Below are positions 1 to 60,796 of a DNA stretch of 64,000 bases, one piece after another. Under the pieces are notes generated by a model that saw nothing but the letters and a program-made list of their open reading frames with translations, did no database searches and had not been told where the DNA came from. The stretch lies in contig CM097887.1 in the NCBI GenBank assembly GCA_044892525.1, forward strand, positions 120,878,397 through 120,942,396, read 5' to 3'. The DNA is from Schmidtea polychroa. Its lineage: Eukaryota. The stretch's first letter is position 1, and every line of letters begins with the position of its first letter. Made by a program: the position numbers and the translations under genes.

Positions 1-2
1 CC

Positions 3-656
3 TGTGCAACGAGGAAAAACACTGGATCGAAATGGAAAGCACCTTTGACGCCAATGCCGGTACCAATAGAGCCGATGACAATGATATCAATGGACGTAGT
101 TGGTCCATTACCGGAATCGGATAGAGGAAACGTTTATATTTTAGTGATTACAGACTTTCTCACGAAATTTCCAGAAGCATTCGCGATGCCAGACCAAAAA
201 GCTAAAACAATCGCAAAAATTTTGGTAGAAGAGATATGTTGCCGATATGGAACACCAAAACAAATATTAACCGATCAGGGAACTAATTTTATGAGTGAGA
301 TAATGAGCGAAGTAACGAACTATTTCAAAATCGCAAAACTAAGAACATCTCCATATCACCCTCAAACCAATGGGATGACGGAAAGATTTAATGGAACACT
401 TATACAAATGCTATCAAACTACGTCGATCGTCACCAACGAGATTGGGACGAATATATAAACCTATGTCTTATGGCGTACAGAATGTCGATTCACGCATCA
501 ACGAAAATGAGCCCATTTAAATTAATGTACGGAAGAGAATGTAACATGCCAATGGACCTGGAATACCACCACCGATATCGCAGTATATGGAGATCAACGA
601 TTATGTTACGAAATTCAAGGAAAGAATGCAAGAAATTTGGGAAACTGCGGGATTAA
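3..656 (+). CDS. Ty3/gypsy integrase core (frame open from the window edge; frameshifted near 563-586)
   Basis: Motifs SMDVVGPLP, ILTDQGTNFMS and PQTNGMTERFNGTL give an intact D,D(35)E triad. The frame is open from nt 3 (CATRKNTGSKWKAPLTPM). Confidence 0.95.
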   Translation, partial: CATRKNTGSKWKAPLTPMPVPIEPMTMISMDVVGPLPESDRGNVYILVITDFLTKFPEAFAMPDQKAKTIAKILVEEICCRYGTPKQILTDQGTNFMSEIMSEVTNYFKIAKLRTSPYHPQTNGMTERFNGTLIQMLSNYVDRHQRDWDEYINLCLMAYRMSIHASTKMSPFKLMYGRECNMPMDLEYHHRYRSIWRSTIMLRNSRKECKKFGKLRD

Positions 657-3367
657 ATATCAAGTTCTACCAGGAAAGTTATAAAGACTTACACGATCGA
701 AAGAAAAACGTGAAGCAACATACGTTTCAAACAGGTGATTGGGTAATGATAGAAACCCCGGAATTAATTCCAGGAACCACAAAAAAGTTACAACGCAACG
801 GAAAAGGACCATATGAGATTCTATTTGTAGGCGAAACCAATGTAAGAGTGAAATTGGTAAATAATCCATTCACCAGGCCAATATACGTGAACGTGGCACG
901 ATGTAAATCAATTCCAAAAACCGCCACCAGTCAACCGGAAGGTCGAACATTAACCACACGTTCGCAAACATACAGAATGAACATGATGCAACAACTCGCA
1001 GAACCTATCACTGGACGATTGGGCATACAACCATCGGAAGCGGAAAAAATCGTACGAGAGGTAAAGATAAAATTACCCGGATGGGCAAAAGATCGATTAG
1101 ATTTCGAAATATTAGGAGGATTATTGACGATGATCGAAAATTATGCGAACAGAGAGAGGACACATCCGTTATTGCGAGTAGTTAAAAGTCAATGGCCAAT
1201 ATTATTTACAATAACAGATCATTATGGAGACACACCATTACACAAACTCATGAAAGTAGGTAACAACGAGCAAATACTAGAAACAATAGAAGCATTTCAC
1301 GACTGCAAGCGATCAACAGAACAAGAAAACAACCAAGGTTACACACCATTAATGATAGCAGCAAACAGAGGCAAAACCAAAGACATTATAACCGCATTAC
1401 TTGATACTGGATACGAGCGGAAAAATGCACTACATCATGCTATCGAAGGGAAAAGTACCGAGGCATTCACGTCTTTGATGGAACTACTATCATATGAAGA
1501 CAATCGAGAAGTCGGAAACATGTATGATGGATTGTTAACAGCGATCAAAGAAAAACTGACAACAATTACCGGAATATTAATTACATGGAGAAATCCAATT
1601 AAAAATGATTATATGATCAACGTAAACGAAGCGTTCACGAGAGGAGAGAACACGCTGATGAGAGAAGCTATGAAAGGACATCATTTATTCGAAATCCCGA
1701 ATCAATTACTAGAACGAGGGATAAAATTCACAAATCATAAAGATGAACAGTTAGCAAAAAAGCGAATCGACACATTCGAAAAATCACTATTCCAATTTTC
1801 TAACCAAGTACGAAATAAATATTGGGAAACGGTAAGTGTGTTATATATGATGGACACAATGAATAACATCCGCGAGAATTACCTGGATATTATCCAAATA
1901 CTTACAGCAGAGGAACGAATCAATAATCCAAACGGAAAGAAAACGAAAATAAGGTATGGGAAATCAAGGGAACCAAAGTCGACAACGAACCAAACGGTCA
2001 CAAACAACGTCATCGAAACCAAATCAATGAGTATAGATCAAGAGGCAATAATACGCAAAGCAAAAGAAGTATTCTTCGAGGAAATGCTAGAGCTGTCAGA
2101 CGAAATAATATTGTCAAAAATAATAAAAGCCGTACACACATACGCAAGAGACCAAACCACGGGTTTAGATATCGGGAAAATCAAAACCTTCTTGCCTCGA
2201 GCATTTACGATGGTAACAAAGGATTCCAGAACACCTCTACAACAAGCAATACTAGCTGCAAAAGAGAATAGAGCAATAACGATCATGAGAATCCTTGGGG
2301 AGATGGGCGAAGAAACCAACACGAAAAATGAACAAGGCGAAACCGCCATGATGTATGCAGCTATAACGAAAATACACCCAAAAACACTCCACATACTACA
2401 TCAATCGGGATCGAAACTAGACGAAAGGTCCAATGAAGGAAATTCCACCTTGGACTGGGCAACCATACAGCCAAACTTAGAAATGATCAGATTTATTTGC
2501 AAAAATGCGACAAAAGAAGAAGTTGAAAATATATGCAGAAACACATCTCAATTTCAGTGGAATACGGTACGGAAAAATCTAGAAGCAATGAAATTATTAT
2601 TAACATGGAGAGTACCACAAAATAATAAATACGCGATAAATGTAAACGAATTCTACGAAAACGGAGAAAACGCGATGGTAAAGAATACATTAACTAAAGG
2701 GGGGACACCAAAAATTATTTTAATAGTATTAAACAGAGAAGACCTCAAATTCACGCAAAATCAGAACGAGCAACAACGAGTTGGAAAACATCGTCGTATT
2801 CAATTGAGAGAGTTAGTCAAAGAATGGAATAGAAAGAGACATGCTGCAACGGGTAGAAAAGAGTTTGAATTCGAAGCAAAATTAGCAAGAAACAGAGTGC
2901 TAACAGCATATCGCAGATTATTGAACGATATAAATGTCGAGGACGACATTTTAAACGACAGCGGGGGAGATAAACACGATGACAATGACGGAAAAGGCCG
3001 AAAAGAGGATAAAGGGAAAAGAGAACCGGAAGAGGATAAACCGGAAAACAAGGATTTGGATACGAAAAGAGAGGGAAACAGCCCGGGAACCAAGACCAAA
3101 GAGGAGGAAAAACCGAATAATGGAAAACAGAGGGTATGCCTACCTTTCACTAACAAAGAAATAGAGACAAATATGATATTAATGATAATTATGCTTACCA
3201 TGATAGAGTTAGTAACAGCTCATGGAGGGACGAGAACGATAAAAGAAACCAAAGAAGCGGAGAATCAAGATAGCAAAGAGGATGAACTAAAACAAGAAAA
3301 GAAAAAGCAAGCACAAGAGCAGCAGTGGGATTTAAAGGAAGAATGGGACTTAAAGGAAAGGGACTAA
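587..3367 (+). CDS. Integrase C-terminal (GPY/F, SH3-like) region fused to an ankyrin-repeat protein with a hydrophobic tail
   Basis: FQTGDWVMI..KKLQRNGKGPYEI is a typical gypsy IN C-terminus. Ankyrin consensus matches: YGDTPLHKLM, QGYTPLMIAANRG, KNALHHAIEG, SRTPLQQAILAA, QGETAMMYAAI, EGNSTLDWATI. Confidence 0.85.
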   Translation: MEINDYVTKFKERMQEIWETAGLNIKFYQESYKDLHDRKKNVKQHTFQTGDWVMIETPELIPGTTKKLQRNGKGPYEILFVGETNVRVKLVNNPFTRPIYVNVARCKSIPKTATSQPEGRTLTTRSQTYRMNMMQQLAEPITGRLGIQPSEAEKIVREVKIKLPGWAKDRLDFEILGGLLTMIENYANRERTHPLLRVVKSQWPILFTITDHYGDTPLHKLMKVGNNEQILETIEAFHDCKRSTEQENNQGYTPLMIAANRGKTKDIITALLDTGYERKNALHHAIEGKSTEAFTSLMELLSYEDNREVGNMYDGLLTAIKEKLTTITGILITWRNPIKNDYMINVNEAFTRGENTLMREAMKGHHLFEIPNQLLERGIKFTNHKDEQLAKKRIDTFEKSLFQFSNQVRNKYWETVSVLYMMDTMNNIRENYLDIIQILTAEERINNPNGKKTKIRYGKSREPKSTTNQTVTNNVIETKSMSIDQEAIIRKAKEVFFEEMLELSDEIILSKIIKAVHTYARDQTTGLDIGKIKTFLPRAFTMVTKDSRTPLQQAILAAKENRAITIMRILGEMGEETNTKNEQGETAMMYAAITKIHPKTLHILHQSGSKLDERSNEGNSTLDWATIQPNLEMIRFICKNATKEEVENICRNTSQFQWNTVRKNLEAMKLLLTWRVPQNNKYAINVNEFYENGENAMVKNTLTKGGTPKIILIVLNREDLKFTQNQNEQQRVGKHRRIQLRELVKEWNRKRHAATGRKEFEFEAKLARNRVLTAYRRLLNDINVEDDILNDSGGDKHDDNDGKGRKEDKGKREPEEDKPENKDLDTKREGNSPGTKTKEEEKPNNGKQRVCLPFTNKEIETNMILMIIMLTMIELVTAHGGTRTIKETKEAENQDSKEDELKQEKKKQAQEQQWDLKEEWDLKERD

Positions 3368-3389
3368 AAGAAAGGGACTAGGAAGATGC

Positions 3390-4184
3390 ATGTCTAGAGC
3401 GTATCAGAAACTAGTACTGATAAATGAGGACACAGAACCAATAACAGAAGTAAGAATACAAGAAGCATACCGAAATCGAAACGGGAAGAGAATAACGAAC
3501 GTTAAAGGAAAAGAGGTACACCTAGGAAAAGGTGGTGAAGTAGTAATAACGCAGCTCCAACCTAGAAAAGAGCACAAAGTCTGTATTTCAAGATTAGGAC
3601 CCGGTGAGAGATGCCATCAATATGTGACGCAGCAGCAGCCGCCGAAAGAATACACGGTTTGTATCTGGAGAAACGAATCAAAAAGAGAATGCCGACGATA
3701 CCCGGGGAAAAGAGGAAAGAAAAGAAAAAACCACGACGAAAAGGACGAAGGAGGAAAGCACAAGAAAACCGGCGAGGAAGCTCAGGACAACTATGTTTCG
3801 GAGGAAGAGATGGAAAAAATACAAAAGATGGCAAAGGAGGGTATGAACGAGGAAATAGCAAGAATACGAGAGATGATGAAAGGGAATGGCAAAAGAGGGA
3901 ACGAGAAAAGTACAGAAGCAATATCAACATTAACAAACAAGGAAAAACCAGAGAGTATAAGCGTGAAGCAGATGATGTGGATCAGTGGGATAATAATAAC
4001 AGGGGCCTTCCTAATCATAACGGGGGGAACAATAAAAATAATTAAAGATAAACGACATCGCGGAGAACTAGAGATGACCCGAATCAGAAATTTCCAACAT
4101 CGAGTGAAACGACCAAGTGATATCAAACAAGAACAGTGGGTGGAGGCCTGGAACGCTCAGCGCCCTCCAAACTCACGTATATAG
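3390..4184 (+). CDS. Element A accessory ORF, unknown; duplicated Cys-pair motif and one predicted TM helix
   Basis: 264-aa ORF in the element's A-rich style. TQLQPRKEHKVCISR..RCHQY and TQQQPPKEYTVCIWR..ECRRY; hydrophobic MMWISGIIITGAFLIITGGTI. Confidence 0.7.
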   Translation: MSRAYQKLVLINEDTEPITEVRIQEAYRNRNGKRITNVKGKEVHLGKGGEVVITQLQPRKEHKVCISRLGPGERCHQYVTQQQPPKEYTVCIWRNESKRECRRYPGKRGKKRKNHDEKDEGGKHKKTGEEAQDNYVSEEEMEKIQKMAKEGMNEEIARIREMMKGNGKRGNEKSTEAISTLTNKEKPESISVKQMMWISGIIITGAFLIITGGTIKIIKDKRHRGELEMTRIRNFQHRVKRPSDIKQEQWVEAWNAQRPPNSRI

Positions 4185-4344
4185 AAAGGAATATAACTGT
4201 ATATAATTGTAAAAAGTAAGTATATCTTATGTATATAACAGTACTATATCTGTATATAAGCGTGGTATCAATATTATACAATAACGGGAATCATAAAATA
4301 AAATTAAATTTAAATAAGAGTTGAAAAGTGTATATAAATTAAGA

Positions 4345-4704
4345 ATGGATCAAGGAAATAACGAAATGAACCACAATACAGTAACTGAAGAATTATGGAA
4401 GCAACAATGTGCCGTATTAGCACAATTAGTGTCCAATTTGCAAGAACAAGGATTGACGATGCACAGAAACCTAATCGAGAGTATGAATAGAGGATTTAGT
4501 TATTTGAAGACAATTGAAGACCAGAGGTTGAAAATCGAACAAATGCAAAGAGAGATAGAGAGGATAACCCAATATAGCCGTAGACAGGAAATTGAACTAG
4601 AAAGAATGATGGAGGAAGCAGAACAGACAGAAATAGAAGACTGGTCGGAATGGCTAATGAATAGAGAGGAGAGCGGACACGAAGCCGACTCTTCCGAACC
4701 CTAA
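4345..4704 (+). CDS. Element A accessory ORF, small coiled-coil protein
   Basis: First ATG at 4345 follows an AT-rich spacer; helical E/Q/R-rich sequence. Confidence 0.6.
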   Translation: MDQGNNEMNHNTVTEELWKQQCAVLAQLVSNLQEQGLTMHRNLIESMNRGFSYLKTIEDQRLKIEQMQREIERITQYSRRQEIELERMMEEAEQTEIEDWSEWLMNREESGHEADSSEP

Positions 4705-4789
4705 ACCAAACCTAGCTTAAAATGTAAATAATTGTAAATAAAATATCGAACCTATATCGATAAGAACTATATGTACATATAATTATAGA

Positions 4790-6178
4790 ATGGATAAACG
4801 ACAAAGAGAAGAGTTCAGAGAGATTGTTGAACGAGTCCGAAAGTCTACAACGATCAGAATACACAAACATGTTATGTGCGGAATATGTGAAAAGTTGTTA
4901 AAAGAACCTCACCAAACTCAATGTGGATGCAGAGTATGTAAAGAATGTATCAGTGAAGCAATAAAGAATAGACCACAGTGGTGCCCGGTGTGTAAAGAGA
5001 CACTAATATCGAGTTTAGAAGACACTAACGAGGATAAAGCCGCAGTGAAAGACATGTTAAACACCAACCTGGGATGCAAAAATGCCCCATGCGAATGGAA
5101 AGGAGTAATATGGAAGGTAGTACAACATATGGGAGAATGTATGTACAGAATTGGCCAGTGTGAAAGGTGCCATAAAACCATTCGAGCAAGCGAAGAAAAA
5201 GAGCATCAAAGGCAGTGTGAAGAGAGATTGGAAAGATGTGAACATTGTGGAGAAATAGATACGTGGAAAAATCTCACCCTCAAACATCACAATGTCCAAG
5301 AGGAGAGGGAATGTGCAGAGTTCAGTGGGGAATGCCCAAACGGATGTAACCAAGGGGAAATAATAAAGGTGGCACAGCATCTAAGGGAATGTGAAAAGAA
5401 AAGAATGACATGTGTACTAGGTAAATGGGGTTGTCAGAAACTACTACACCGAGGGGAGTTACCACATCATTTAGTAGAAAATGCTTCAACCCACGCAGAA
5501 ATGTGGTCGACTGCGTTACAAGAAAGCGAAGAGAAAGTAAAACAAATGGAGATAGAGATAACATCGTTGAAAGTGCTAGTCAAAGAATTACTAGAAGAAA
5601 GGGAAGCGTTCGAAGAAGCCCGAGCAAACATAAAGATGCAAATAAACCGAATAGAAATCAGTAATAATCAGGCCAAGGAGCTACATCAGAAAATACGGGA
5701 AATAAATCTAAATGAGATAACCCCAACAGCACCCTACATATGGAAAATAACGGGAGTAAAAGAAAGAATACGAAAAGCAAAACCCGGAGAAGAGACAAGA
5801 ATAACAAGTCCTGCATTCCATTCTTGGAAAAATGGGTACAAAATGAAAATGAAGATATATCCCAACGGGGACGGAACCGGATTAGATACACACTTTTCGA
5901 TTTTCTTTCTGTTATGTAAAGGGGAATACGACGAAATAATAGAGTGGCCGTTCCAGGCAAAAATCGATATTGCACTAATGAATGACCGAAGCATCCACGA
6001 ACAAAGCTTCAAGACAACTGGAAACCAAATGTGTTACCAGAGACCTACGGAAGAAGAAGGATCAGCAACAGGAGCACCTACGTTCATCCTACAACAAAAA
6101 GTAGAAGATATGGCAAGAAATGACACGGTGTATATCAAGATGACCGTGAGGAAAGAGGAGAAGGGCAGAACGGAGTAA
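4790..6178 (+). CDS. TRAF: Full-length intronless TRAF (TRAF2/3/5-like): RING, TRAF zinc fingers, coiled coil, MATH
   Basis: RING CGICEKLLKEPHQTQCGCRVCKEC..CPVC; zf-TRAF repeats (CKNAPCEW..HMGEC, CPNGC..HLREC); MATH PYIWKITG..GYKMKMKIYPNGDGTGLDTHFSIFFLLCKGEYDEIIEWPF. Confidence 0.95.
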   Translation: MDKRQREEFREIVERVRKSTTIRIHKHVMCGICEKLLKEPHQTQCGCRVCKECISEAIKNRPQWCPVCKETLISSLEDTNEDKAAVKDMLNTNLGCKNAPCEWKGVIWKVVQHMGECMYRIGQCERCHKTIRASEEKEHQRQCEERLERCEHCGEIDTWKNLTLKHHNVQEERECAEFSGECPNGCNQGEIIKVAQHLRECEKKRMTCVLGKWGCQKLLHRGELPHHLVENASTHAEMWSTALQESEEKVKQMEIEITSLKVLVKELLEEREAFEEARANIKMQINRIEISNNQAKELHQKIREINLNEITPTAPYIWKITGVKERIRKAKPGEETRITSPAFHSWKNGYKMKMKIYPNGDGTGLDTHFSIFFLLCKGEYDEIIEWPFQAKIDIALMNDRSIHEQSFKTTGNQMCYQRPTEEEGSATGAPTFILQQKVEDMARNDTVYIKMTVRKEEKGRTE

Positions 6179-6371
6179 CTAATCGAATAATGTTGTATAT
6201 AATAATCTGTATATATCGGTGTATATAACCAATAAAATATTATATAATAATAGTATGAAAACCCTAAATACGAAAACCCAAAAATGATGCAAAAATTTCC
6301 AAAGAAACAGTAAATAATGAATAAATTCCTTTTTCATAATAAAAAGATTAATCGATGTCTATGATTTAGAG

Positions 6372-7427
6372 ATGACACAAGAGAAACTAACCGAAACTGC
6401 GATAGCCCCAACCAATGTCAACAAGACACAAATTCCCCGAGAACATAACAAAAAATGGAACAAAGTAATGTTCCAACTAACTAATCTCACCCGAAATCAC
6501 ATCGAAGAAGCTAGAGAGGATGAGAATAGTCAATACCAATGGTTAATACACAACTTAAGAGCGGAAGGAGAAGCATGCAAAAGAGCATCAAAATGGGCGT
6601 CACTAGAAAATACCCGCCAAGAAGCGCACAGCCACTACTTAAAGCAGCTAGTGCAGGAAGCGAGAAAGAGACTTACCGATGAGAACACCAAGCGCGAAGC
6701 GGAAAAGCAAATAGAAGGAAGGAAAATGATGCACTTAGTGGCAGAAGCGAGAAAATGGAAAAGACAAAACAGTGAAATGAAAAAAGAGATGAAAGAATTG
6801 CCCATGAGACTCGGATATGAAAGCGAACAAGGTAAATGGGAGGAGAATTTAATAATAAAGGAAGAATTGAAACGGTTGAGAAAGGTCGCCGCCCGAAGTC
6901 AAACCTGGCAAACAAAGGCTATGGAGTTTGAGCGACATTTCGCAATAAAATGCGACATAAGAGAGCACGAGAATGCCGCAATGGAAGAGATGATAACCCA
7001 ACAAGCAGGACGGGTTGTGGAATTAGTAAATCAGGTAGAAGAGATGAAAAGAGACCTTAATGGATTACAAGGATCGTTGGAACAAAGAAACATGGTCCTA
7101 GCTGGAAAAAACAGAAAATTAGAAAACGAAAGGAAAATGTACACCGAAAATATCAAAAACTTGGAAATAGAAATTGAAAAATGGAAGGGCGACGAGAAAA
7201 TCAAGGCCCTAGATAGACAAATAGAGATGAAAGACGAAGAGACAAGGTACCTCACCTACCTGCTCGACGAAGAGCTGAACATCACTCGAGCTCTAAGAGA
7301 CGAAATTAATGAGTTGAGAGCCCAAATTCCCCAATATTACCTACCATACGACCCTATTGCGATACAGTTACATCCCGCGGTCGATAGTGATGAAGGTTAT
7401 GTAGGCCAGGAGGAAACCTTCGTATAA
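6372..7427 (+). CDS. Element A accessory ORF, long coiled-coil protein of unknown family
   Basis: Uninterrupted 351-aa E/K/R-rich helical ORF flanked by AT-rich spacers; ends ETFV. Confidence 0.7.
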   Translation: MTQEKLTETAIAPTNVNKTQIPREHNKKWNKVMFQLTNLTRNHIEEAREDENSQYQWLIHNLRAEGEACKRASKWASLENTRQEAHSHYLKQLVQEARKRLTDENTKREAEKQIEGRKMMHLVAEARKWKRQNSEMKKEMKELPMRLGYESEQGKWEENLIIKEELKRLRKVAARSQTWQTKAMEFERHFAIKCDIREHENAAMEEMITQQAGRVVELVNQVEEMKRDLNGLQGSLEQRNMVLAGKNRKLENERKMYTENIKNLEIEIEKWKGDEKIKALDRQIEMKDEETRYLTYLLDEELNITRALRDEINELRAQIPQYYLPYDPIAIQLHPAVDSDEGYVGQEETFV

Positions 7428-7593
7428 GGGTGAATAAAAGATGAAAACAAAAATCGGGACGTATATCCCAAAAAAAAAAAATTAAAGTATTGTAAAAGTA
7501 TTTAAGGGACTGTAACCCGAACTATTAAATTTTATATAAATGTATATGTATAAGTCGCACTATAGCGCACCATTAACTGTACATATTACAGAT

Positions 7594-8298
7594 ATGAAAA
7601 TCGAGGAAATAATAGAAATTACGAGCGACGTAGAAGAGGGAGAGATTGAGGCAGAAACAACAGAAACACAAACGTTAAAGGCCGAGTTACGGGAAGAGAA
7701 GTACGAAAACGAGAGACTAGTAAACAAATATATAGAAGACCGAAAAATGATTAAAATACTTAAGAAAGAGTGCGAAGTGCTAGGAGAAATAAAGAGAGAA
7801 GCCGAAGAGAAGAATGAATGGCTGCAAGAACAACGAAAACGAGGAAGAAATTGGGAAAGGATTGCAGAGGAACTATGGCAAGAGAGGGCAAGCTTCAAGG
7901 CAGAAGAAGTAATCCAGGATTATTGGAAAACAGAGGCGAAAGAACGCCAAATAACTATAAATAAATTAAATCAACAATTGGAGGAAAAACAACGAGAAAG
8001 TGAGGAAATGAAGAAATGGATTCGCAAATACCAAGAGATCGAGAGAAAACAACAACAACAACAACGAAACCTTTCGCAGGAAAACGAACAAGATTTCCTA
8101 CAAATCGAACTAAAAAGGAATCTCGACAAAAAACGGGAAGAAATTAGAAGACTGAAAAAGGAGATAAGGCACATGAAAAGGGAGGTCCGTGAAAAGAACA
8201 GACAGTTGGAAATGCTGCCCGAGTTAAGACACAGAGTCATTAAAGCGGAATCCACCTTGATGAGAATCGCCGAAAATAACCCAAATCAGAACCATTAA
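7594..8298 (+). CDS. Element A accessory ORF, coiled-coil protein of unknown family
   Basis: Long charged helical ORF; likely start at ATG 7594 after TTACAG (the track starts at 7540). Confidence 0.7.
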   Translation: MKIEEIIEITSDVEEGEIEAETTETQTLKAELREEKYENERLVNKYIEDRKMIKILKKECEVLGEIKREAEEKNEWLQEQRKRGRNWERIAEELWQERASFKAEEVIQDYWKTEAKERQITINKLNQQLEEKQRESEEMKKWIRKYQEIERKQQQQQRNLSQENEQDFLQIELKRNLDKKREEIRRLKKEIRHMKREVREKNRQLEMLPELRHRVIKAESTLMRIAENNPNQNH

Positions 8299-8353
8299 AT
8301 TAAGGGTCACTAAAACCAATTGTAAATAAACATAATGAATGTATAATAGTATC

Positions 8354-8998
8354 ATGCGAGGCGAGATGATGATAACAATGACGGTATTGATGATTCTGAT
8401 GGAGAACAAACAAGTAAACGCCCAACCGAAAATCGTACGAGATTACCGCAATCAAAATCAAGAACCTAAACAAGAATCCGGCAAATGCACATACCCTATG
8501 ACAGTAAAAACCCATATCATCCAAACCATTCAATCAACCCGATCACACATCAACAACATCCAAACAATGTGTAAAAAGAATCCCATTTGTACAATGATAA
8601 ACAAACAAATTCTCGAACAAATCCAACAATTCGACCAGTTAGAACAACAAATGCAACAAGAGAATTTTGAAAATCTTGTAGAAAAGCCAAAAACACCTCC
8701 CGAAATCAATGACACCCATTATCTCATATATGTGGTGATTGCAGAAACCCTCCTCCTATGTCTACCAATACTCATGAAGATTTACGAAGTTAGAAATAGA
8801 TGTAGAATCTCGACATCAATAAGAGTAATCTCGAACAGAAATCCTCAAGAAGTGCCACTGACAAATCTTAACCCAACCCCATTCCGACCTCGAATCCCGA
8901 GTAACCAACCAATCCAGCCGAATTCTAACAGTCAGACCTATCTCAACATCAATACCCAAACCAACCAACAGCCGCCAACAGAAGCATCAAATGATTAA
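8354..8998 (+). CDS. Element A accessory ORF, predicted type I membrane protein
   Basis: Signal-like MMITMTVLMILMENKQVNAQ, two Cys in a Q-rich ectodomain, TM YLIYVVIAETLLLCLPILM, N/Q/P-rich tail. Confidence 0.65.
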   Translation: MRGEMMITMTVLMILMENKQVNAQPKIVRDYRNQNQEPKQESGKCTYPMTVKTHIIQTIQSTRSHINNIQTMCKKNPICTMINKQILEQIQQFDQLEQQMQQENFENLVEKPKTPPEINDTHYLIYVVIAETLLLCLPILMKIYEVRNRCRISTSIRVISNRNPQEVPLTNLNPTPFRPRIPSNQPIQPNSNSQTYLNINTQTNQQPPTEASND

Positions 8999-9575
8999 TA
9001 GTTCATAAATTCTAACTCAAACATTTGTGTTATCATATGTGGAAACTTTTATTGTATATACAAACTATCACCTTAAGTGATAATTGCTTGGTCTTGATTT
9101 GACCTATATCTTAGAATAAAAATTTTTTGTTTTTGTATAAATGTTTCGATATATCCTTTTTATGAATGCATGAAGTAAGATAACTATGCAATTGCGGGAC
9201 GCAATTTTGATGGGTCCCCGAGTGATTTGTTGGGCTGAGCCGAAAGATAGCTGGGAAATCAGGTTAAACTTAACTAAAGAAAAATAAAAAAAGAAAAATA
9301 AAATAAAAAAAATAAAATAAATAGATTGAGAAATAAAATAGAATAGAATATAAGAAAAGCAATAATTAGAAAATAAGAATTAAAACAAAAAACATAAAAA
9401 TAAGAACAATTAAATAGGACAATAGAATGACGAAAAATAACGTAAAAGGTAGTAGATAATAAGGAAATTAAGGGAAATAAATAAAAACATAATTTTAATA
9501 AAGAAAATAAGAAGAAATAACCCAAAAACAAGGAAAAAAAATTAAATGAATAAAATAAGGCGGTACTCAATTCTG

Positions 9576-9609
9576 ATTGGTCCGCATAAACAAAAAATAC
9601 CTATATAAG
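9576..9609 (+). promoter_or_regulatory. LTR promoter: reverse CCAAT box (ATTGG) and TATA box (TATATAAG)
   Basis: ATTGG at 9576 and TATATAA at 9602. The same arrangement recurs in the LTR-like repeats at about 49,700(-) and 32,190(-). Confidence 0.55.
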
Positions 9610-11652
9610 TAAACAGCAAATTCACTATAGTCAATGTTAAAACCAAACCAATTATAGGTAAGAATAGTATTAACTACATAAATGTTAAAACCAAACCAAT
9701 TATAGGTACTCGACAATCAGGAAAACCAAACCATACTCAGACGACTATTAGGGACAGTTCTATAGACTACTCATTCATATAACCGATTTGATCAGTTTAT
9801 ATTTCGGCTCAGCCTTTGGAACTACAGAATTTTTCAAATAATAAAGTAAGGGTGTATTGCTGTTATGAAATTTGTTTTTGAAGGATTAAATATTTCTATT
9901 ATATTAACCTAACCTTTGAATAAAAACTTCTCCATTCGATTTCAATTTTTTAATGATTTTATAGTTCATAAATTAATTTAAAGGTTAATGATATATAAAT
10001 CTTTATGCTATGTTTTGTCATCGAACGTATTGATTATGCTAAAATTATTTTTTTGAGAAACGTGGAGTTGAGGAGACCCACGCCATGGTATGAGGAGCCT
10101 TCGGGAGCTCAGCCGGCGGGTGTGGATCTCTTCAATCACGCAGCTGACGTGGGCCGGAATGTGGGGGCTTCCTCACGGGTCCGTCGCTGAGGGAAATAAA
10201 ATGCTGCAAGCACGGGTTTAAAGTACAGAGGAATGTATTCCAATATTGAAAAGTAGAGCAAATTTGAATTGAAAATGACTGAGGTGGCTACAAACTCTTA
10301 GTAAACATTACACTCTGAAATTTCATCCGACATCAGAAATCGTATATTGACATCAACTGACATTCCATCTTTTAGCAGAAAAATATTTTTCTATCAAAAC
10401 TTACTGCGTACAAATAGGTTCATCAAATGCGAAATCAGAATATAGAGAGCATAAATAAAGATTTATTCAACAAAAGATTTGTAGCATAAATATAATTGTC
10501 AACAAACGCTGTAATTTTTCCATTGCTTCTGAAAATCCACGATAGCGGCAACGCGAGGTTCTTTCTATAAATGACTCTTTCGACCAAAATAAGAGAGATT
10601 TCTGTTGAATGAACTGCTGGGAATATTTCCCGAAATCACAACATCCAAGTTGAAAAACGGAGGGAACTGCACATCGCGAGAATAAAATTCCAACGTTCAT
10701 GCGCGGTGAGAATTACTCATAGAGAACATATTGAATAACTAAAATAATTCCAACTCGCAGTGTGAGACGATCAGCTGCAACCCGTTGACATAGATAGTAA
10801 GGAAACAGACAAGGCAAATCACACGCATTGCCACATATAAATACACACTGACATATGCCGCATGCATCCTTTTCCCAGCCCGCTGATGACGGTGAGAACA
10901 AAAATTGAAGCACACGCTCATGACATAATCATCTCCAATAGATATGTATCTTTCCGATTCATGTGGCTAATGATTTCTACGAGTGATTCATGCGTCGTCG
11001 GATGACTGTTAATAATCGACTAAATTTTATAGGTTGATTGCACTAGTAGACTCCATAATGAAAAATAAATTAATTGATTTTAGGATGGGGATAGAAATCT
11101 GATCATACGCGACTTATTAAAAATCTAACAGTAGCACGTTGATTAACCGGGTTTTCTGAATTTAATATTCAAATATGAGTTACAATTTGGGGCCATAAAT
11201 TTAAGGATCGTTCACGCGGCCCTGGAGAATTTGTTTTACGTTTTTCAAAAATAAATATCTGTAGTCGAAAAGCTATGTGCAAAAATGAGCATTAATTATT
11301 CAATCATGCAAATATTCCTGATTCTTCCTAAACCATTTCTATGGTAAACTGTAAATCTAATGTCCATTATGTCAATACATTCGCGAGTCATTTTTCACGT
11401 AAATATTTGAAAATCTCAGATAACGGTAGGTAATGAATATTTTGAGTATAACCATAAATTTTTGGCAGAGTATTATCCAAATGTTAATTTCTCTTACACC
11501 CTAAATAGACCTCTAAAAATTCACTGAATGCAATTAACACTATTTCTAACGAAACTATATCATTTATTCTTTCCCCTTTTACTTAATTTTACGAAAATCA
11601 ACAAATGATTGTGTCCATACTAGTTTAGTAGAGATCGCTGATCTTAATTCTT

Positions 11653-12303
11653 ATGCTCATTGTTTCTTTGTTACAGCTATCAACAATGTTGCCAAGCTCG
11701 AAGCCGTCGCTCAAACCCTGTTTCTCCTGTGCCGACAAAAATACCGTAATCCGAGAATTACAGGCCCAGATCGGTCGATATAAAAAGAAAATCGACGATC
11801 TGGAAGGTACATGGTTTAGCCCAGTACAAATGAAGGAGGTTCAAAAGAAATTGTACCGCAGTGAGCATTGTCGCGATGCTTTGATAAGCGAAAGTAGAGC
11901 TCAGCGTAGCCTAATCAAAGAGCAGTCCGAAGCTCTACATAAAGTTTACGTCCAAGCCGCTACAACCCGAAGGATCGTTAGTATTCCGATTAAAGAAGCG
12001 GACAATGTCTTCCCCGTTCACCATGAACCTTCATTTAGTTCGCCACCCTTGTCGAAAAGATCTTGTCAGGAATGTGTGGAGGCCGACCTCTCCCCCAGGC
12101 CATCGGACGTACCTACTCCCGGTACTGGCAAGGTATCGCATTCAGCCACGACGTCCTCGGCAATCTTGTCTGCTAACCCCTCAAAACCTAAGCGTCGCCA
12201 ATTGTCCAGAGCGGAGCGTAAGAAGCGCCAACGTGAACGGGCAATTGTCAAACAACGAGAACTATCTGCCAACCCCCAAGTGCTTCGAATGATCCACCCG
12301 TAA
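11653..12303 (+). CDS. Unknown repeat-borne ORF (CxxC, coiled coil, basic tail), copy 1; probable start ATG 11686 after a splice acceptor
   Basis: LKPCFSCADKN..QMKEVQKKLYRSEHCRD..IKEQS; two degraded homologues in the window; TTTCTTTGTTACAG acceptor ends at 11676. Confidence 0.55.
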   Translation: MLIVSLLQLSTMLPSSKPSLKPCFSCADKNTVIRELQAQIGRYKKKIDDLEGTWFSPVQMKEVQKKLYRSEHCRDALISESRAQRSLIKEQSEALHKVYVQAATTRRIVSIPIKEADNVFPVHHEPSFSSPPLSKRSCQECVEADLSPRPSDVPTPGTGKVSHSATTSSAILSANPSKPKRRQLSRAERKKRQRERAIVKQRELSANPQVLRMIHP

Positions 12304-13004
12304 CGATCGATCTGACCGTAGGAATCCCAGGGCGAATCATATCTGCCGCTGGTGTGACTTGGGAGGAGAATGCCTCCGAGTTTTTTTATCTAGAAGAGCT
12401 ATTGGCGGATGCGGGGTGGGAGAAGTGAGGGCCGCAACACAATACAACCGTGCAGGGCGCGAATGGACAAATATACTATCATGACTCCTTTTCTTCTTAA
12501 TCTATTCTCCACCAAGTGTACTTGTTATGTAGTGTATAATTATCTAATGTATCATGATAATAAAATAAAGAAATTTTTGGTTAAAATTTTGTTGTTGTTT
12601 AAATCTAACTAGCTGTGGTAAAGGTTCAGAGTAGTGTTCGCAAAGCGAGAGTAAATTTTGAGTTCGAGAGGCAGTGGTCAATTTTGTGCCGAACCATGGG
12701 TCAGGGTAGAGAGAGAATCTGATGAGGTAAACAGACGTAAGTCCTTCCAGCGGCCGTCAGAAAGGGAAGTCGAGGCCTCATTAAGGAGTAGTCCTAAGGT
12801 AGGGGCTCACCTGCTTACTGGAGTCTCGCCAGCATAGCACATTTCCAACGTGAAGCAATTCGCGGGTGCTATGTTGGAGGGCAGGTTGTGCGGGGTCCTG
12901 CTCCGGGTGGACACGGGCGTATGTAGCGTACTGATATGGACACGCATCCCCTAGACAAGGACGTAGATTGAGCAGAGTCAACCAAGCACTACCCCAGCAC
13001 AACA

Positions 13005-55564: not shown

Positions 55565-56611
55565 TGTTGGATGACAGAGGAAGAAGAATCGAAGAGTTTG
55601 AACTAACACATTACTATAGAACGGGCAGCAACAAGTTCAGAATCAATATATACGTAGAGCCCAGATAACTCAAGCCGGACAAATCAAAACAATTATCATT
55701 ACAATTTGATTACTGACTTATGTACATTAGTTATTTATCGGACTATTATTTTATGACAATTATTATTACGGTGTTTTATATTATTTTATCAATGTATCTT
55801 ATTTATTTTATGGATTTTATGTTTGATATTTCATGTAAATAAAACATAGTATGGGGATTAATTAAATAATTAATATCAGTATAGCTACAAAATACATAAT
55901 ATTGAAAATAATAAAAATATAAGTGGACACTTTAAATAATTGAAAAACATATGTTTTAAAATCATAGGAGCATGAGTGGTTCTCGAGTCGTGGGAACATA
56001 ATAATAATTAATAGCAATAATAATAATTTTAGTAATAATAATAATTTTAATTTTTTTATCACAAATTTTTAGCAATCATAAATAATTTTAATATTTTAAT
56101 TTTTAGCAATCATAAATAATTTTAATATTTTATCACATAACAATAATCAATTTTGTAGCAATTATTTAATAAGCATGTATATAAAAATATATTAATTTCT
56201 TAATTATATTTCACTTCTTAAGTACACTTGAAAAATATAACAATTTAATTTCATATACAAAAAAAGTATAAATAGCGAGTCAAAATTCATTTTTTTCGCC
56301 CCAAAATTTTAACCGCGTTAACATACTAAAAAGGTTAATCCTTATTAGTGCTAAAACTCGAACAGACAAACAGAAACGTTCAAAAGCCTACACGCAACAC
56401 AGCAAGAGAATACATAACATTCACACAGTACATACAAGCATATTCGGTTGGATATTTGAAGGATTTTTGGATTTTTGTAACCTAGCAACAAATTCATATT
56501 GGTAAATTTTTCTTTATAATAAAAGTTTTATAAATCACTTTGTCTTTTGATATATTTGTACATATATAAGAACCAGTAAGTTGAGTGTTCCCGAATATCG
56601 AGACCTCAACA
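55565..56611 (+). repeat. 5' LTR of element B
   Basis: No differences from 60693-61739 seen by eye; identical 66-aa shadow ORFs offset by 5,128 nt. Confidence 0.97.
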
Positions 56612-56613
56612 TT

Positions 56614-56631
56614 TGGTGCCGCGAACCGGGA
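56614..56631 (+). promoter_or_regulatory. Primer binding site TGGTGCCGCGAACCGGGA
   Basis: Starts with TGG 2 nt after the LTR; resembles the complement of tRNA-Phe 3' ends (TGGTGCCGAAACCCGGGA), less so tRNA-His. Confidence 0.85.
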
Positions 56632-56850
56632 CTTTAAAATCAATTATTGTTATTCACAATTTGGGGGATAGGAATTGAGATCAGAGGGTATAGTATTTTA
56701 TATTGGGAAAATATATTTATAAAAATAATATCATTGATCAATTTTTAAATAAATAAATTCAGTTTTGAAAATTATTAAATAATTCAAAAAGATAAAATAG
56801 ATAATCAACCCTAAATAGTTTATAATCTCAGAAATAGAATAGTCTATAGG

Positions 56851-59247
56851 ATGAATAATAATAATAATAATTGCATAAAAATTTTACCAGTAGAACCATA
56901 TAGAGGAGAGCCTGAAAAGTGCGACGATTTTTTCACTGAGATCGCTCAGTATACAGAAGCTTGTGGTTGGACACCTGATGAATTAAAAATGAGAATCCCA
57001 TTATACTTAAAAGGTTATGCGTTACAGGCATACAATAACTTAGAATGTAAAGGGAATAATTTTGATCAACTCGTAAGATATCTGAGAGCAGAAATAGTAA
57101 TCGATAGCGATTTACAAAAGATAAATGTTCAAAAATTTAGAAACAGATATCAAGGAACTAGAGAATCAGTTGGTGAATATGTATATACAATTACGGAATT
57201 AGCGAAAAAGGCATTTGGTGCAGGCGAGCACACACCAAAGTTAATTGAGGATCAGTTTTGGAACGGTATACAAAAATATTTATATAAAGCATTAATTATG
57301 GTAGAATATGGTAATTTAAATGAATTAGTTCATAAAGCTAAACGTATAGAAGCAATACAACGAGATAGATTTAGCTCACATGTAGATGCAATGGAAATCC
57401 AAAAACCCATCGAGGTAAAATCTGAGTTGGGTAAGTCAGATGACAACATTCCATGGGAGGAGATGAAGCAACTATATTTAAACTTTGTAAAAAATAGACG
57501 AAGGGTAAGCCCGAGTCCGGATAGAAGTCAATCGCCTGAAAACAGGAGGAGATTTGATAATGTGAGAAACAGAAACTTTGAGAATAGAAACAATAGAAAC
57601 ACTTTTGATAGAGATAATCGATACGAATACAATAGAAATAATTATACGAGAGATAATCGAGTCGATTTTAATAGAAATAATTTGAGAAATAATAAATATG
57701 ATAGAAGTAATAGATATGATAATAGAGATAATACAAATGATTTGAGACGTAGACAGACAAGTCCATATAGACAGAATTCATATAGAGAAAGGCGAGGAAG
57801 CCCTTATAATAATGATGGTAGAGATAAAGTAAATTTTAATGGACAAATCAAATGTTATAATTGCCAAAAATATGGTCACTTAGCTAAATTATGTAACAAT
57901 GCGCGAAGCGAATCGCCTAATAGAGTGAGATTTAAAAATGAACCTGAGATAAAACAAATTAATAGTGCTGAGTTGATATCAGCTAATGAGGAAATAAACA
58001 GTTTGAGAGAGGAATTAAAAGAATTTAAAACTCAATATGGGAGACTTATTGAGAGAAAGTTAGAAATGTCATTAAATGAGTTTCAGTGTTTTACTAATAA
58101 TGTAGATATAGATAATGATGAGTTTCGCGAAGCAAGAGAAGCGGATGAGAAATTTCTTGCAGAAGCAAATAGATGTAAAGAATTAAAAGAGGAATTGAAA
58201 GAGACATTAGAGAAATGGCCTTATGATGACAATGAGACATTGCGTATAATAAATAGAGTTCAAGTCGAAGGAATTGACTTAGAATATTTGAGAAATTTGA
58301 TACCACTAATGGTAAAGAGGCAAAATATGACAAGAGTATTTGAACTAGAAATAGAATTGAAAGAAATGATAAAGTGTTATGGTGAATTTGTGAGAAAAAA
58401 TCAGAAATTACATGAGTCATTGAATATAACTATTGAGGCAAAGGACCTTTCGAGAATACTTATGCGTAGTACAGGGGTACATGTTTGCACAAAAGTGAAT
58501 AAAGTGAAACAGATGGCCAGAGCAAATTGGCCCGAGAAATTGGGAGATAATGATAAAGTGAAACTGTATTTTAACGGCGTAGAAATGATGAATAATGAAT
58601 ATATAATTGACTATGGAGTAAACGTCATTGATAACAATATTATTTCTGCAGTAATAGAAAGGCAAGAAAGTAAAGAAATTGATACACCAACTCCATCAGT
58701 AGAATTGAGTATAAATGACGAAAATGACTATGATAAATTATTTAGATTGTGGGATGCTTCTTCAGGAGGAGCAATGAGGTCACCAACAGTTAGCGATGAA
58801 ATCTTTAAACCTATTGATACTAAATATGATAATTTACATGAGACAATAGAAAAAATTGCGAAACAAGCAAATATGCAGGACGCAGAGACGATGAGACGAG
58901 GTAGAGGAAGGCCTCGAAAATCGGAAATAGTCGAAAAGTCAGATGACAGAAAGGCAGCAGAGCGTCTAAGAGATATTGCAAATAATATGAGACAGGAAGT
59001 CCCAAAAATTCAGGATAATGACAAAGATATAAAGATGATAACAGAGTTAGTTAAAGCAATGAATATGAGACGATTTCCGGAAGCAAAACCATCAGCGTTA
59101 ATAGAAAATATAGTTAAAAAGATTAAATTAATGGAAAAAGAGATTAGAGAATTGAGTGCAGAGGAAGCAAATGAAGAGACAGTGTTAAAGATATTATTTA
59201 CAACAGGAGTTAATCGAGATAAAGTGATTACGCAATGGCATATTTAA
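56851..59247 (+). CDS. Gag (capsid plus CCHC) extended by helical, ubiquitin-like and AT-hook regions
   Basis: PYRGEPEKCDDFF..GWT..IPLYLKGYA capsid; CYNCQKYGHLAKLC at 57853-57894; KLYFNGVEMMNNEYIIDYGV Ubl signature; RRGRGRPRK. Confidence 0.9.
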   Translation: MNNNNNNCIKILPVEPYRGEPEKCDDFFTEIAQYTEACGWTPDELKMRIPLYLKGYALQAYNNLECKGNNFDQLVRYLRAEIVIDSDLQKINVQKFRNRYQGTRESVGEYVYTITELAKKAFGAGEHTPKLIEDQFWNGIQKYLYKALIMVEYGNLNELVHKAKRIEAIQRDRFSSHVDAMEIQKPIEVKSELGKSDDNIPWEEMKQLYLNFVKNRRRVSPSPDRSQSPENRRRFDNVRNRNFENRNNRNTFDRDNRYEYNRNNYTRDNRVDFNRNNLRNNKYDRSNRYDNRDNTNDLRRRQTSPYRQNSYRERRGSPYNNDGRDKVNFNGQIKCYNCQKYGHLAKLCNNARSESPNRVRFKNEPEIKQINSAELISANEEINSLREELKEFKTQYGRLIERKLEMSLNEFQCFTNNVDIDNDEFREAREADEKFLAEANRCKELKEELKETLEKWPYDDNETLRIINRVQVEGIDLEYLRNLIPLMVKRQNMTRVFELEIELKEMIKCYGEFVRKNQKLHESLNITIEAKDLSRILMRSTGVHVCTKVNKVKQMARANWPEKLGDNDKVKLYFNGVEMMNNEYIIDYGVNVIDNNIISAVIERQESKEIDTPTPSVELSINDENDYDKLFRLWDASSGGAMRSPTVSDEIFKPIDTKYDNLHETIEKIAKQANMQDAETMRRGRGRPRKSEIVEKSDDRKAAERLRDIANNMRQEVPKIQDNDKDIKMITELVKAMNMRRFPEAKPSALIENIVKKIKLMEKEIRELSAEEANEETVLKILFTTGVNRDKVITQWHI

Positions 59248-59630
59248 TAGCAAGATACAAGAAACTTTTGCGATTGAATCCAAAGAATCAAATAGAAAAT
59301 ATCGCTAAAATGATATATAATAAATTAAAGATAGATGCTATGCCATGGATAAAATTAAAGGGAGGATGGAAAATACTGTATGATGAGAGTCTAATCGAAA
59401 GTGCTCAGGAAAGCGTAGAAGATAATATTAATGTAGAAATAGATGATACGGAGGAAACAGTAAAAAATCTAGTAAATAAAACAACTATGAAACCAAGTCA
59501 AAAAGAAAGAAAGTCGACAATGTCAATAGTAATTATAGTAATAACATTGTTATTAGATCTGATAAAAGGGCAATCATGTTCGTCGATGTCAAAGAAGTAT
59601 GCGACATCAATAACAATCTCAGACCAGTAG
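59235..59630 (+). CDS. Element B ORF2 (possibly the frameshifted tail of ORF1), ending in a hydrophobic signal-like segment
   Basis: 13-nt overlap with ORF1; MSIVIIVITLLLDLIKGQ. Confidence 0.5.
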   Translation: MAYLIARYKKLLRLNPKNQIENIAKMIYNKLKIDAMPWIKLKGGWKILYDESLIESAQESVEDNINVEIDDTEETVKNLVNKTTMKPSQKERKSTMSIVIIVITLLLDLIKGQSCSSMSKKYATSITISDQ

Positions 59631-60796
59631 AGATATGCATCAGAAATTTTAGAGGAGAAATCGTATACAATAAAAAGGTGACTCCACGCACCAAAATCCA
59701 ACATTATTACCCGGAGAAGACAAGAGCAGACAGAGATTCGATAAGAGGAAACGAAGACGAATACCAAGCGCTGATCGACATACAGAAGCTGCTACTCGGA
59801 AAAATCATTGTGGGATACGAAATAATAAAGAAACTCAAGACGCTGACATTAGATCTGTACAATGTCATGGGAGTCAGAGAGTTAGCTGATGATGTGTTCA
59901 TGTGTTCATTCGTCAAAAATGTAGCACCACACAGAATCAAATTATCGAATCTCGCATACAAAGTAATCGCAACACACCCAAAATGGAAGAAAGACAAAGC
60001 AATCAACAACATCCTCAAAAAACCCGAACCGTTCTCAGCAGAAGATACAACACTAATCGCAAAAGTCATCTACCTTTTGGTCGAGAAGCAGTGGGAAGAA
60101 GTCATAAGGTGGGACATGACAGCATTCCAAAAGGATAATGGCCATCAACTCAGTCCAATAGAAGAAAACAGCGATGAGCCAGAGGAATTTGAGGAAGATA
60201 TATATATCGAACCCTCACAAAGAGAATTGAAATTCAATAAAGATGGGAGCAGATGTACCTTTGAAGATGAACTAATAGACAGCGATGATGACATCATATT
60301 CGTCAAAGAGGACAAAAAACCACAAGCAATCACAATAAAGGAAGAACCTCAGACATCAAGTAGTTACAACTATGCCGACCCACAATGTGATTTAGACTCG
60401 GATGAAGAATATTTCTCACCGAGCGAAGCAATGCAGATAGATGACGAACTAGGACCAGAGCCAAATGTCGAGTTGGAGGAGCCAATGTTCATCATCAAAG
60501 AGGGAAGATCCACTATCTCGGAAAAAGAAATACATCAACACTTCGGTAGACGAATTATTGATGGTGATGTGTTAAAATTGGCATTAAAGAAAGGATTCCA
60601 AAGAGCAACAATGTATATAAACGGTTGCGAAATCGAATTGGTCCTTAGCGATAAAGGTAATGAGGACATTACTTTATCGGCCCTAGGAGGAGTGTTGGAT
60701 GACAGAGGAAGAAGAATCGAAGAGTTTGAACTAACACATTACTATAGAACGGGCAGCAACAAGTTCAGAATCAATATATACGTAGAGCCCAGATAA
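59576..60796 (+). CDS. Element B ORF3: REX4/ISG20-like DEDDh exonuclease fold (catalytically degenerate) with acidic tail; ends inside the 3' LTR
   Basis: MFVDVKEV, VEICIRNFRGEIVYNKKVTP, IQKLLLGKIIVGYEIIKKLKTL, VRELAD, KLSNLAYKVI and PFSAEDTTLIAKVIYLLVEKQWE are colinear with the REX4 motifs. Confidence 0.8.
   Translation: MFVDVKEVCDINNNLRPVEICIRNFRGEIVYNKKVTPRTKIQHYYPEKTRADRDSIRGNEDEYQALIDIQKLLLGKIIVGYEIIKKLKTLTLDLYNVMGVRELADDVFMCSFVKNVAPHRIKLSNLAYKVIATHPKWKKDKAINNILKKPEPFSAEDTTLIAKVIYLLVEKQWEEVIRWDMTAFQKDNGHQLSPIEENSDEPEEFEEDIYIEPSQRELKFNKDGSRCTFEDELIDSDDDIIFVKEDKKPQAITIKEEPQTSSSYNYADPQCDLDSDEEYFSPSEAMQIDDELGPEPNVELEEPMFIIKEGRSTISEKEIHQHFGRRIIDGDVLKLALKKGFQRATMYINGCEIELVLSDKGNEDITLSALGGVLDDRGRRIEEFELTHYYRTGSNKFRINIYVEPR
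60685..60692 (+). promoter_or_regulatory. Polypurine tract AGGAGGAG
   Basis: Directly abuts the TG of the 3' LTR; short, and lies inside ORF3 (LGGV). Confidence 0.7.

Follow-up and report, generated by a model that had tools for sequence, protein, structure and literature searches.

How a long terminal repeat (LTR) retrotransposon with one promoter could express a row of separate genes downstream of its polyprotein is the question raised by a locus of the planarian Schmidtea polychroa, analysed here in a window of 64,000 nucleotides (GenBank assembly GCA_044892525.1, contig CM097887.1, positions 120,878,397 to 120,942,396 of the forward strand, all coordinates below being counted from the first letter of this whole stretch). 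Judged from the sequence and from the published description of Burro, the region between positions 4185 and 9227 fits the 3′ accessory-gene array of a Burro-type giant Ty3/gypsy element, Burro or GYPSM1 being giant gypsy-like LTR retrotransposons of planarians (PMC6431247). The element type itself is already known; what is new, and what we regard as a real feature of the array, is the measured anchoring of a short motif to stop codons, together with a host-stop control, a test of motif position 5 and the host Pumilio code.

The reading that we prefer, at a probability of about 0.5, is that the array would be expressed as nested cis-spliced mRNAs from one LTR promoter, with a shared 3′ end and with Pumilio sitting just past each stop codon and repressing as it usually does. 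The promoter would drive the whole element, and a 26-nt leader within the LTR would be cis-spliced to alternative acceptors before each gene, giving nested mRNAs that share one 3′ end. Pumilio bound just past each stop would presumably act in its usual manner, by deadenylation and repression. In the window copy the RNA of the polyprotein open reading frame (ORF1) would carry 13 Pumilio sites and the successively shorter mRNAs 9, 6, 3, 2 and 1, and this falling site number would adjust the dosage of the proteins and lower it in stem cells rich in Pumilio.

The family of the window copy is here called family A and its sister family family B. Comparisons within family A cover 17 copies, the window copy and 16 others picked from 150 listed so as to span 85–93% protein identity, and counts over such kin copies are not counts of independent events.

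The TGTAHATA motif and its distance from stop codons

A first-pass annotation of the sequence had drawn attention to 13 sites of the form TGTAHATA (H being A, C or T), and all of them are found where it had placed them, on the + strand within 888 nt of spacers, with none in the seven flanking ORFs scanned, again as it had noticed. Its chance expectation of 0.3 sites was too low, since dinucleotide shuffling of the six spacers yields a mean of 0.74; the enrichment nevertheless holds against this TA-rich control, with a maximum of 5 sites in 3000 shuffles. Elsewhere in the window the density is 0.26 sites per kb. A caveat on the count of 13 is that the site at 4251 occurs only in the window copy among the 17. 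In an intact family A element, 665 nt of internal spacers contain 11 sites, and the + strand of ORF1 (13.9 kb), the accessory ORFs (4.2 kb) and the LTR (3.9 kb) contains none; an intact family B element has 7 sites in 689 nt of spacers and 2 in 20.5 kb of ORFs. Every internal spacer retains at least one motif in each of the 17 copies.

The position of the motif is clearly tied to the preceding stop codon. The first motif begins 13, 18, 15 and 22 nt past the stop in four of the five internal spacers of the window copy, and 16, 17, 16, 18 and 17 nt past it in five of the six spacers of family B, the sixth of which has a G variant of the motif at 26 nt. Such a concentration, with nine of 11 spacers falling in one 10-nt band, was reached once in 20000 random placements, whereas the distance to the next ATG scatters from 16 to 178 nt. 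As a host control, 54 stop codons (30 from G-protein-coupled receptor (GPCR) genes and 24 from TRAF genes, many of the TRAF rows being paralogues) have no site 10–25 nt downstream and only four sites in 10,800 nt overall; about nine of these stops are probably not true stops, and the comparison of 9/11 with 0/45 still gives p = 7e-9. The stop-anchored motifs are also conserved in sequence, with three of their 28 columns varying among seven subfamily representatives against 217 of the 563 other spacer columns (p = 0.002). In a compact family that bears env but no 3′ array (L067–L080), TGTATAAA stands about 20 nt past the single stop in most copies in which the ORF end is seen.

The motif had been proposed to be a Pumilio element, and it indeed matches the Pumilio response element (PRE) consensus UGUAHAUW (PMC5758885) in all eight positions on the sense strand. 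Like known PREs, the sites follow the exact consensus with a free position 5 and occur on the sense strand only, outside coding sequence (PMC5758885). Across the 17 family A copies position 5 is T in 97, A in 64, C in 19 and G in none of the 180 sites, and swaps between C and A or C and T at this position preserve the site. The host genome encodes a Pumilio-family (PUF) protein, the eight repeats of which, read from four exons, carry the residues SRFIQ, NYVIQ, CRVIQ, NHVVQ, CRVIQ, NYVIQ, SNVVE and NYVIQ, the canonical Pumilio recognition code. The TGTAHATA sites 13–22 nt past the stops are likely bound by host Pumilio just outside the footprint of the terminating ribosome. A terminating ribosome covers about 12–15 nt past the stop, and the sites therefore start at about the shortest distance from the stop at which a protein could remain bound while the mRNA is translated; about 28 nt has been mentioned as the size of the ribosome shadow (PMC11529991). 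A literature search found nothing on the position of PUF sites relative to stop codons, the available part of PMC9661723 included.

The closest parallel in site number is the PRE-rich long noncoding RNA NORAD, with 17 sites against the 11–13 of a full-length element RNA. In contrast to NORAD and to ordinary PREs, the sites of the element lie between retroelement ORFs and are fixed relative to each stop, and their binding by Pumilio is a prediction.

Predicted acceptors, LTR leader and common 3′ end

An AG had been noted one to four nucleotides before five start codons of the array. All five are present; at 7594 and 8354, however, the annotation had chosen the downstream ATG over in-frame upstream ATGs at 7540 and 8339 that are kept in 16 and 17 of the 17 copies, respectively. 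The YAG in front of the ATGs at 4790, 6372, 7594 and 8354 is found in 17/17 copies, with C/T swaps at −3 and a changing distance to the ATG, and in this respect the AGs resemble 3′ splice acceptors, as had been suggested; splicing from one LTR promoter appears to be their best reading. With the annotated starts, YAG-N(0-4)-ATG precedes eight of 11 ORFs in the two families (background 0.088 per spacer position, p = 5e-7), the corresponding figure for host GPCR starts being 6/30 (p = 0.003). Two of four family B copies have lost an upstream ATG, while the ATG after TTTGTAG persists. Measured against UUNYAG, the acceptor consensus of parasitic flatworms, the window has YAG at four of the five positions and the full TTNYAG at two.

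A possible donor for these acceptors lies within the LTR, where a CCAAT box, a TATA box, the 26-nt leader ending in YAG and GTAAG follow each other in this order. In 14 of 17 LTRs the donor AG/GTAAG (the slash marking the predicted cut) keeps a distance of 81–82 nt to the CCAAT box despite strong divergence of the leader, and a cis donor is therefore at hand at the very start of the transcript. The first-pass annotation had allowed for trans-splicing of a spliced leader (SL), which is not needed, the LTR having its own leader and donor. The donor opens a GT-AG segment of 46–52 nt, the 3′ end of which repeats the leader exactly, and precisely this segment is missing from three of the 17 LTRs. 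Within leader and intron (window 9632–9705), the leader copy is exact over 24–33 nt in all 14 LTRs with the intron, though the leader itself differs strongly between subfamilies, which would follow if the packaged RNA were spliced at its 5′ end and the leader rewritten into the intron in each copying round. To produce the accessory mRNAs, the LTR donor would be joined to acceptors over 20 kb or more. Complex retroviruses, foamy viruses and the adenovirus late unit likewise express accessory genes by splicing one 5′ leader, from a single donor, to alternative acceptors, whereas the splicing predicted here concerns a Ty3/gypsy element with a 26-nt leader, an intron ending in a leader copy and five or six 3′ accessory genes.

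At the 3′ side, an AATAAA had been reported in each spacer and taken to indicate internal polyadenylation. All eight hexamers are present at the reported positions, yet their number is at chance level (8 against 6.2 expected, with 27% of shuffles reaching 8). Five of the seven internal hexamers are lost in 4–10 of the 17 copies, those at 4737 (inside a motif copy) and 6320 persisting, and the sequence 3′ of the internal hexamers is A-rich, not U/GU-rich, with a T fraction of 0.17–0.35 against 0.50 at 9115. The AATAAA at 9115 is present in 17/17 copies and is followed by U/GU-rich sequence. We infer from this that family A mRNAs end near 9135–9150 or in the LTR. No AATAAA was seen in the last spacer of family B, the shared 3′ end of which may lie elsewhere. 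Within the LTR, an ORF at window 11653–12303 encodes an arginine-rich tail and contains a pyrimidine-rich acceptor (11675–11676) before an in-frame ATG at 11686, and an AATAAA with a U/GU-rich tract lies 3′ of it at 12559–12569, which suggests a very long R region.

Several points weigh against nested cis-spliced mRNAs under Pumilio control. Splicing, poly(A) sites and Pumilio binding are all predictions from sequence, and families A and B, at 80% integrase identity, are not independent origins. As regards the motif and its anchoring, stop-anchored sites are missing from the family A spacer 7428–7593, from the RING ORF that precedes gag and from the ORFs of the LTR, and the site at 4329, by alignment, is lost in four of 17 copies; moreover, the anchoring is not fully explained, as ordinary Pumilio repression needs no fixed distance to the stop. 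As regards the acceptors, that at 4345 is AAG in eight copies and TAG-GA in nine, and the conserved upstream ATGs at 7540 and 8339 make the acceptor case weaker at those two ORFs: with first in-frame ATGs the count falls to 6/11, barely over the 6/30 of the host GPCR genes (p = 0.052). As regards the leader, no equally clear conserved donor was seen in the one family B LTR inspected, and the absence of the LTR intron could also be explained by plain repeat contraction. A genomic search for leader-to-ATG junctions of the commonest subfamily gave no match against 127 unspliced LTRs as a control, although such RNAs would have no primer site and so need not be copied into the genome. In contigs of four sequencing runs (two of them guessed to be RNA) over positions 1–10500, the 15 of 29 joints listed include no GT-AG joint and the 24 of 651 loose ends listed include none at an acceptor, and two contigs of one run cross acceptor positions unspliced; with the run type uncertain, the contig results tell neither way.

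Alternative accounts of the array

The account that survives best next to Pumilio repression keeps the same nested cis-spliced mRNAs and assigns the protein at the stop-anchored site a role in termination: it would either shield mRNAs with multi-kilobase 3′ untranslated regions (UTRs) from nonsense-mediated decay (NMD) or block reinitiation on the next ORF. It would account for the anchoring and for the last ORF, which in both families has a short 3′ UTR and no stop-anchored site. A precedent is the stability element of Rous sarcoma virus, which lies immediately 3′ of the gag stop and binds PTBP1 (PMC5580461). The two are alike in having a protein-binding element directly past a stop with kilobases of viral genes beyond; the viral element, however, spans 155–400 nt and serves one stop, whereas in the array nearly all internal stops have an 8-nt PUF-type motif behind them. 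Pumilio proteins have been reported as direct activators of a minority of their targets but are mostly repressors (PMC5758885), and no PUF protein in the role of an NMD shield was found in the literature search. The near-match TGTATAAA about 20 nt past the only stop of the compact array-less family also speaks against an action on termination, which on balance we consider somewhat unlikely. A broader version is unlikely: the host PUF protein, parked at the edge of every terminating ribosome, would serve as a position-dependent switch (a decay shield or an inter-gene insulator) in a complex-retrovirus programme, and RNAs with 11–13 sites from hundreds of copies would titrate Pumilio as NORAD does, tying transposon derepression to stem-cell failure.

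The array could otherwise be an SL operon, in which cleavage and polyadenylation of the one transcript would take place in each spacer and every downstream gene would acquire the host SL, leaving every ORF a short 3′ UTR with a Pumilio site. Planarians do trans-splice an SL, and flatworm acceptors are often common to cis- and trans-splicing (PMC12582326); the arrangement of co-oriented ORFs 55–193 nt apart with an acceptor before each start resembles the SL operons of nematodes and flatworms (PMC12582326). The presence of a motif in every internal spacer of all copies is what separate 3′ UTRs would lead one to expect, two internal hexamers (4737 and 6320) are kept, and planarians also use poly(A) signal variants of the AAUAUA type (PMC5068929). 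Unlike in SL operons, conserved internal poly(A) signals are lacking here and a cis donor is present: AATAAA is not enriched, the sole hexamer that spacers 1, 4 and 5 each contain is missing from some subfamilies, and the T-poor sequence past the internal hexamers differs from that at 9115. The UGUA of the motif had also been considered as an enhancer of polyadenylation bound by CFIm, which does not agree with the available account of planarian 3′ ends, where neither UGUA upstream of the poly(A) signals nor a CFIm-59/68 homologue is found (PMC5068929). Five cleavage sites would, furthermore, endanger the genomic RNA, and altogether an SL operon seems unlikely.

If each spacer were instead an internal promoter, with the motif as a TATA-like or forkhead-like DNA site, this would suit the TATATAA within TGTATATAA, the spacing of tandem sites by 10–14 nt and the GTAAATA, which fits a forkhead consensus. 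The motif is, however, anchored to the upstream stop and not to the downstream ATG, TGTACATA and TGTAAATA freely substitute for TGTATATA, the TATA box of the LTR itself is not a TGTAHATA, and the conserved YAG would be left unexplained, so that internal promoters appear improbable.

It is very improbable that T/GTAHATA is a weak 5′ splice site and the spacers are short introns, the removal of which would bring stop and start close together for reinitiation. A GT at a fixed place with a YAG at the other end, a G+C content of 0.34 and 0.41 in the first 13 nt past the stop against 0.23 and 0.19 in the rest of the spacer, and one predicted host donor reading GTAAAT would all be in line with it. 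Against this, the GT is preceded by T in 19/19 sites and by CAG or CAA in 6/6 predicted host donors, no genomic copy lacks the one family B spacer tested while 71 have it (the LTR intron, by comparison, being absent from 3/17 LTRs), and no such intron occurs among the 15 of 29 joints listed in contigs over the window. Finally, neutral TA-rich slippage repeats, with which the AT-rich spacers and the one site private to the window copy would agree, are hardly credible in the face of the shuffle test, the strand bias, the positional constraint and the conservation.

The element, its relatives and its biological meaning

The features of the window copy are collected in Table 1. An intact relative in family A (L016–L017) has a single ORF of about 4,600 amino acids followed by the same five accessory ORFs, its domains being Retrotrans_gag, zf-CCHC, a Monjiviricetes-type fusion domain, RVP, RVT_1, RNase H, integrase and ankyrins in this order. 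The env-like fusion domain (PF24664) lies in frame between gag and protease with E values of 1.6e-67 in family A and 2.7e-68 in family B; it is gone from the window copy by deletion. In the window, ORF1 is broken into three pieces (54–656, 587–3367 and 3390–4184) that form a continuous frame in the relatives, and the ORF ending at 4184, which had been taken for a cargo gene, is instead the tail of this giant polyprotein. Pfam finds rve (integrase) and Ank in the window ORFs upstream of the array, RING and MATH in the 462-residue ORF and a BIR-RING ORF in family B only; by Pfam scan alone, no BIR was found in the family A proteins scanned and no Bcl-2 match in either family. The LTRs are spaced by about 26 kb and an LTR measures 3.8 kb, the window copy being about 17.6 kb long after a 5′ deletion. 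Searching the 781-Mb genome with the spacer sequence yields 363 candidate places, of which the best 40 show 98–100% identity. A crude ratio of nonsynonymous to synonymous substitution rates (dN/dS) of 0.06–0.29 was obtained for all five accessory ORFs in 19 of 20 comparisons, one being saturated, and the ORFs are therefore maintained as proteins. Family B has six accessory ORFs, and its spacers can be aligned with those of family A only around the motifs, with integrases 80% identical.

Table 1 Features of the window copy and its 3′ LTR
Feature	Position	Strand	Basis
3′ part of giant polyprotein ORF1 (integrase, ankyrin repeats, C-terminal tail), three pieces	1..4184	+	Pfam rve, Ank; frame in relatives
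Stop-anchored TGTATATA, 13 nt past ORF1 stop; more sites at 4230, 4251 (window copy only) and 4329	4198..4205	+	At +13 in 16/17 copies
Weak acceptor candidate AAG; TAG-GA-ATG in 9/17 copies	4341..4343	+	Copy comparison
Accessory ORF, 119 aa, no Pfam match	4345..4704	+	Crude dN/dS 0.07–0.20
Tandem TGTAAATA pair, first 18 nt past stop; third site at 4772	4723..4740	+	At +17/+18 in 17/17 copies
Predicted 3′ splice acceptor TAG	4786..4788	+	YAG in 17/17 copies, C/T swap at −3
Accessory TRAF-like ORF, 462 aa (RING, MATH)	4790..6178	+	Pfam; dN/dS 0.07–0.14
Three TGTATATA (6194, 6208, 6220), first 15 nt past stop	6194..6227	+	At +15/+16 in 16/17 copies
Predicted acceptor TTTAG	6365..6369	+	In 17/17 copies; distance to ATG varies
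Accessory ORF, 351 aa, no confident Pfam match	6372..7427	+	Pfam, dN/dS
TGTACATA (position 5 C/A by subfamily), then predicted acceptor CAG	7578..7591	+	Copy comparison
Accessory ORF, 234 aa from post-acceptor ATG; 252 aa from 7540	7594..8298	+	Pfam scan, dN/dS
TGTAAATA, 22 nt past stop	8321..8328	+	At +18 to +22 in 17/17 copies
Predicted acceptor TAG	8347..8349	+	YAG in 17/17 copies, C/T swap at −3
Last accessory ORF, 214 aa; 219 aa from 8339	8354..8998	+	Pfam scan, dN/dS
TGTATATA, 54 nt past last stop, not stop-anchored	9053..9060	+	Site at +46 to +70 in 9/17 copies
Predicted common poly(A) signal, AATAAA then U/GU-rich, upstream of LTR	9115..9170	+	AATAAA in 17/17 copies; downstream T 0.50
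3′ LTR, TG...CA, then 4-bp target duplication CAAC	9228..12999	+	99.5% identity over 1073 nt to 5′ LTR piece upstream of window
Predicted core promoter: CCAAT box (reverse, 9576), TATA box (9602)	9576..9609	+	Same layout in 17/17 LTRs
Predicted 26-nt leader exon ending in YAG	9632..9657	+	LTR comparison
Predicted 48-nt GT-AG intron, donor AG/GTAAG; 3′ part an exact leader copy	9658..9705	+	In 14/17 LTRs, precisely absent in 3

The likeness to Burro extends to a size of about 30 kb, a polyprotein of about 4,600–4,800 amino acids with Gag, an env-like fusion protein, protease, reverse transcriptase, RNase H, integrase and ankyrin repeats, and to MATH/TRAF, BIR (here in family B) and accessory ORFs (PMC6431247). 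Unlike in Burro, family A has its TRAF gene as an ORF of its own downstream of pol, and its scanned proteins show no BIR. The available part of the Burro description is confined to domains, with nothing on accessory ORF expression, the LTR leader or Pumilio elements (PMC6431247). No paper on the junction grammar of such elements was found in a literature search in which the coverage of subscription journals was thin.

Further observations concern the structure of the copies. The 5′ LTR of the window copy, located upstream of the window (L011 5376–6960), ends after about 1.6 kb directly in the pre-protease region, the deletion having taken most of the LTR, the primer site, gag and env, and the remaining LTR pieces are still 99.5% identical with the target duplication intact. 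In both families the stretch from the primer site to gag contains an ORF of 160 amino acids (L015 7947–8432; L035 8883–9365), which encodes a RING finger in family A and has a YAG directly before its ATG and no motif 3′ of its stop. No purine tract precedes the 3′ LTR (window 9188–9227; L035 3720–3764); a short inverted repeat and a GGG.CCCCGAGTG block are found there, conserved between families A and B despite otherwise unalignable spacers. Family B has two MATH domains, one in the polyprotein and one in the TRAF accessory ORF, and an IAP-like BIR-RING accessory ORF (L039–L042). The subfamilies of family A (L019–L033) are mosaics in which the identity to the window shifts from ORF to ORF, with LTRs far more divergent than the internal region, and this mosaic structure points to frequent recombination.

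Large TRAF/MATH gene clusters are present in the host (G000 C2, about 3–5 Mb and 105–124 Mb) and are a possible source or product of the cargo TRAF gene. A second LTR element at window 55565–61738 has a gag-like ORF and an ORF of 406 amino acids, the last ORF overlapping the repeat, with no ORF of reverse transcriptase size; its repeats, 5128 nt apart, each contain three TGTAHATA sites that are not stop-anchored. No third family with a 3′ array was found among 16 stretches downstream of env matches, which belong to the compact array-less family or to broken copies, or in the 40 kb downstream of the window, and no relatives in other organisms appeared among the metagenome contigs searched.

In planarians, RNA interference (RNAi) against pumilio leads to a loss of neoblasts or to defective differentiation (PMC3552358), and RNAi against smedwi-2 strongly derepresses BURRO1 (PMC8532177). 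Nested splicing from one LTR promoter offers a testable answer to how a single promoter could serve all five or six accessory genes of a 30-kb LTR element, which are related to apoptosis and ubiquitin, and the fixed spacing of 13–22 nt between stop and motif provides a natural experiment on the action of PUF sites in translation termination. If the proposed model is true, it would describe a retrotransposon that wires a host stem-cell regulator into each of its gene junctions.

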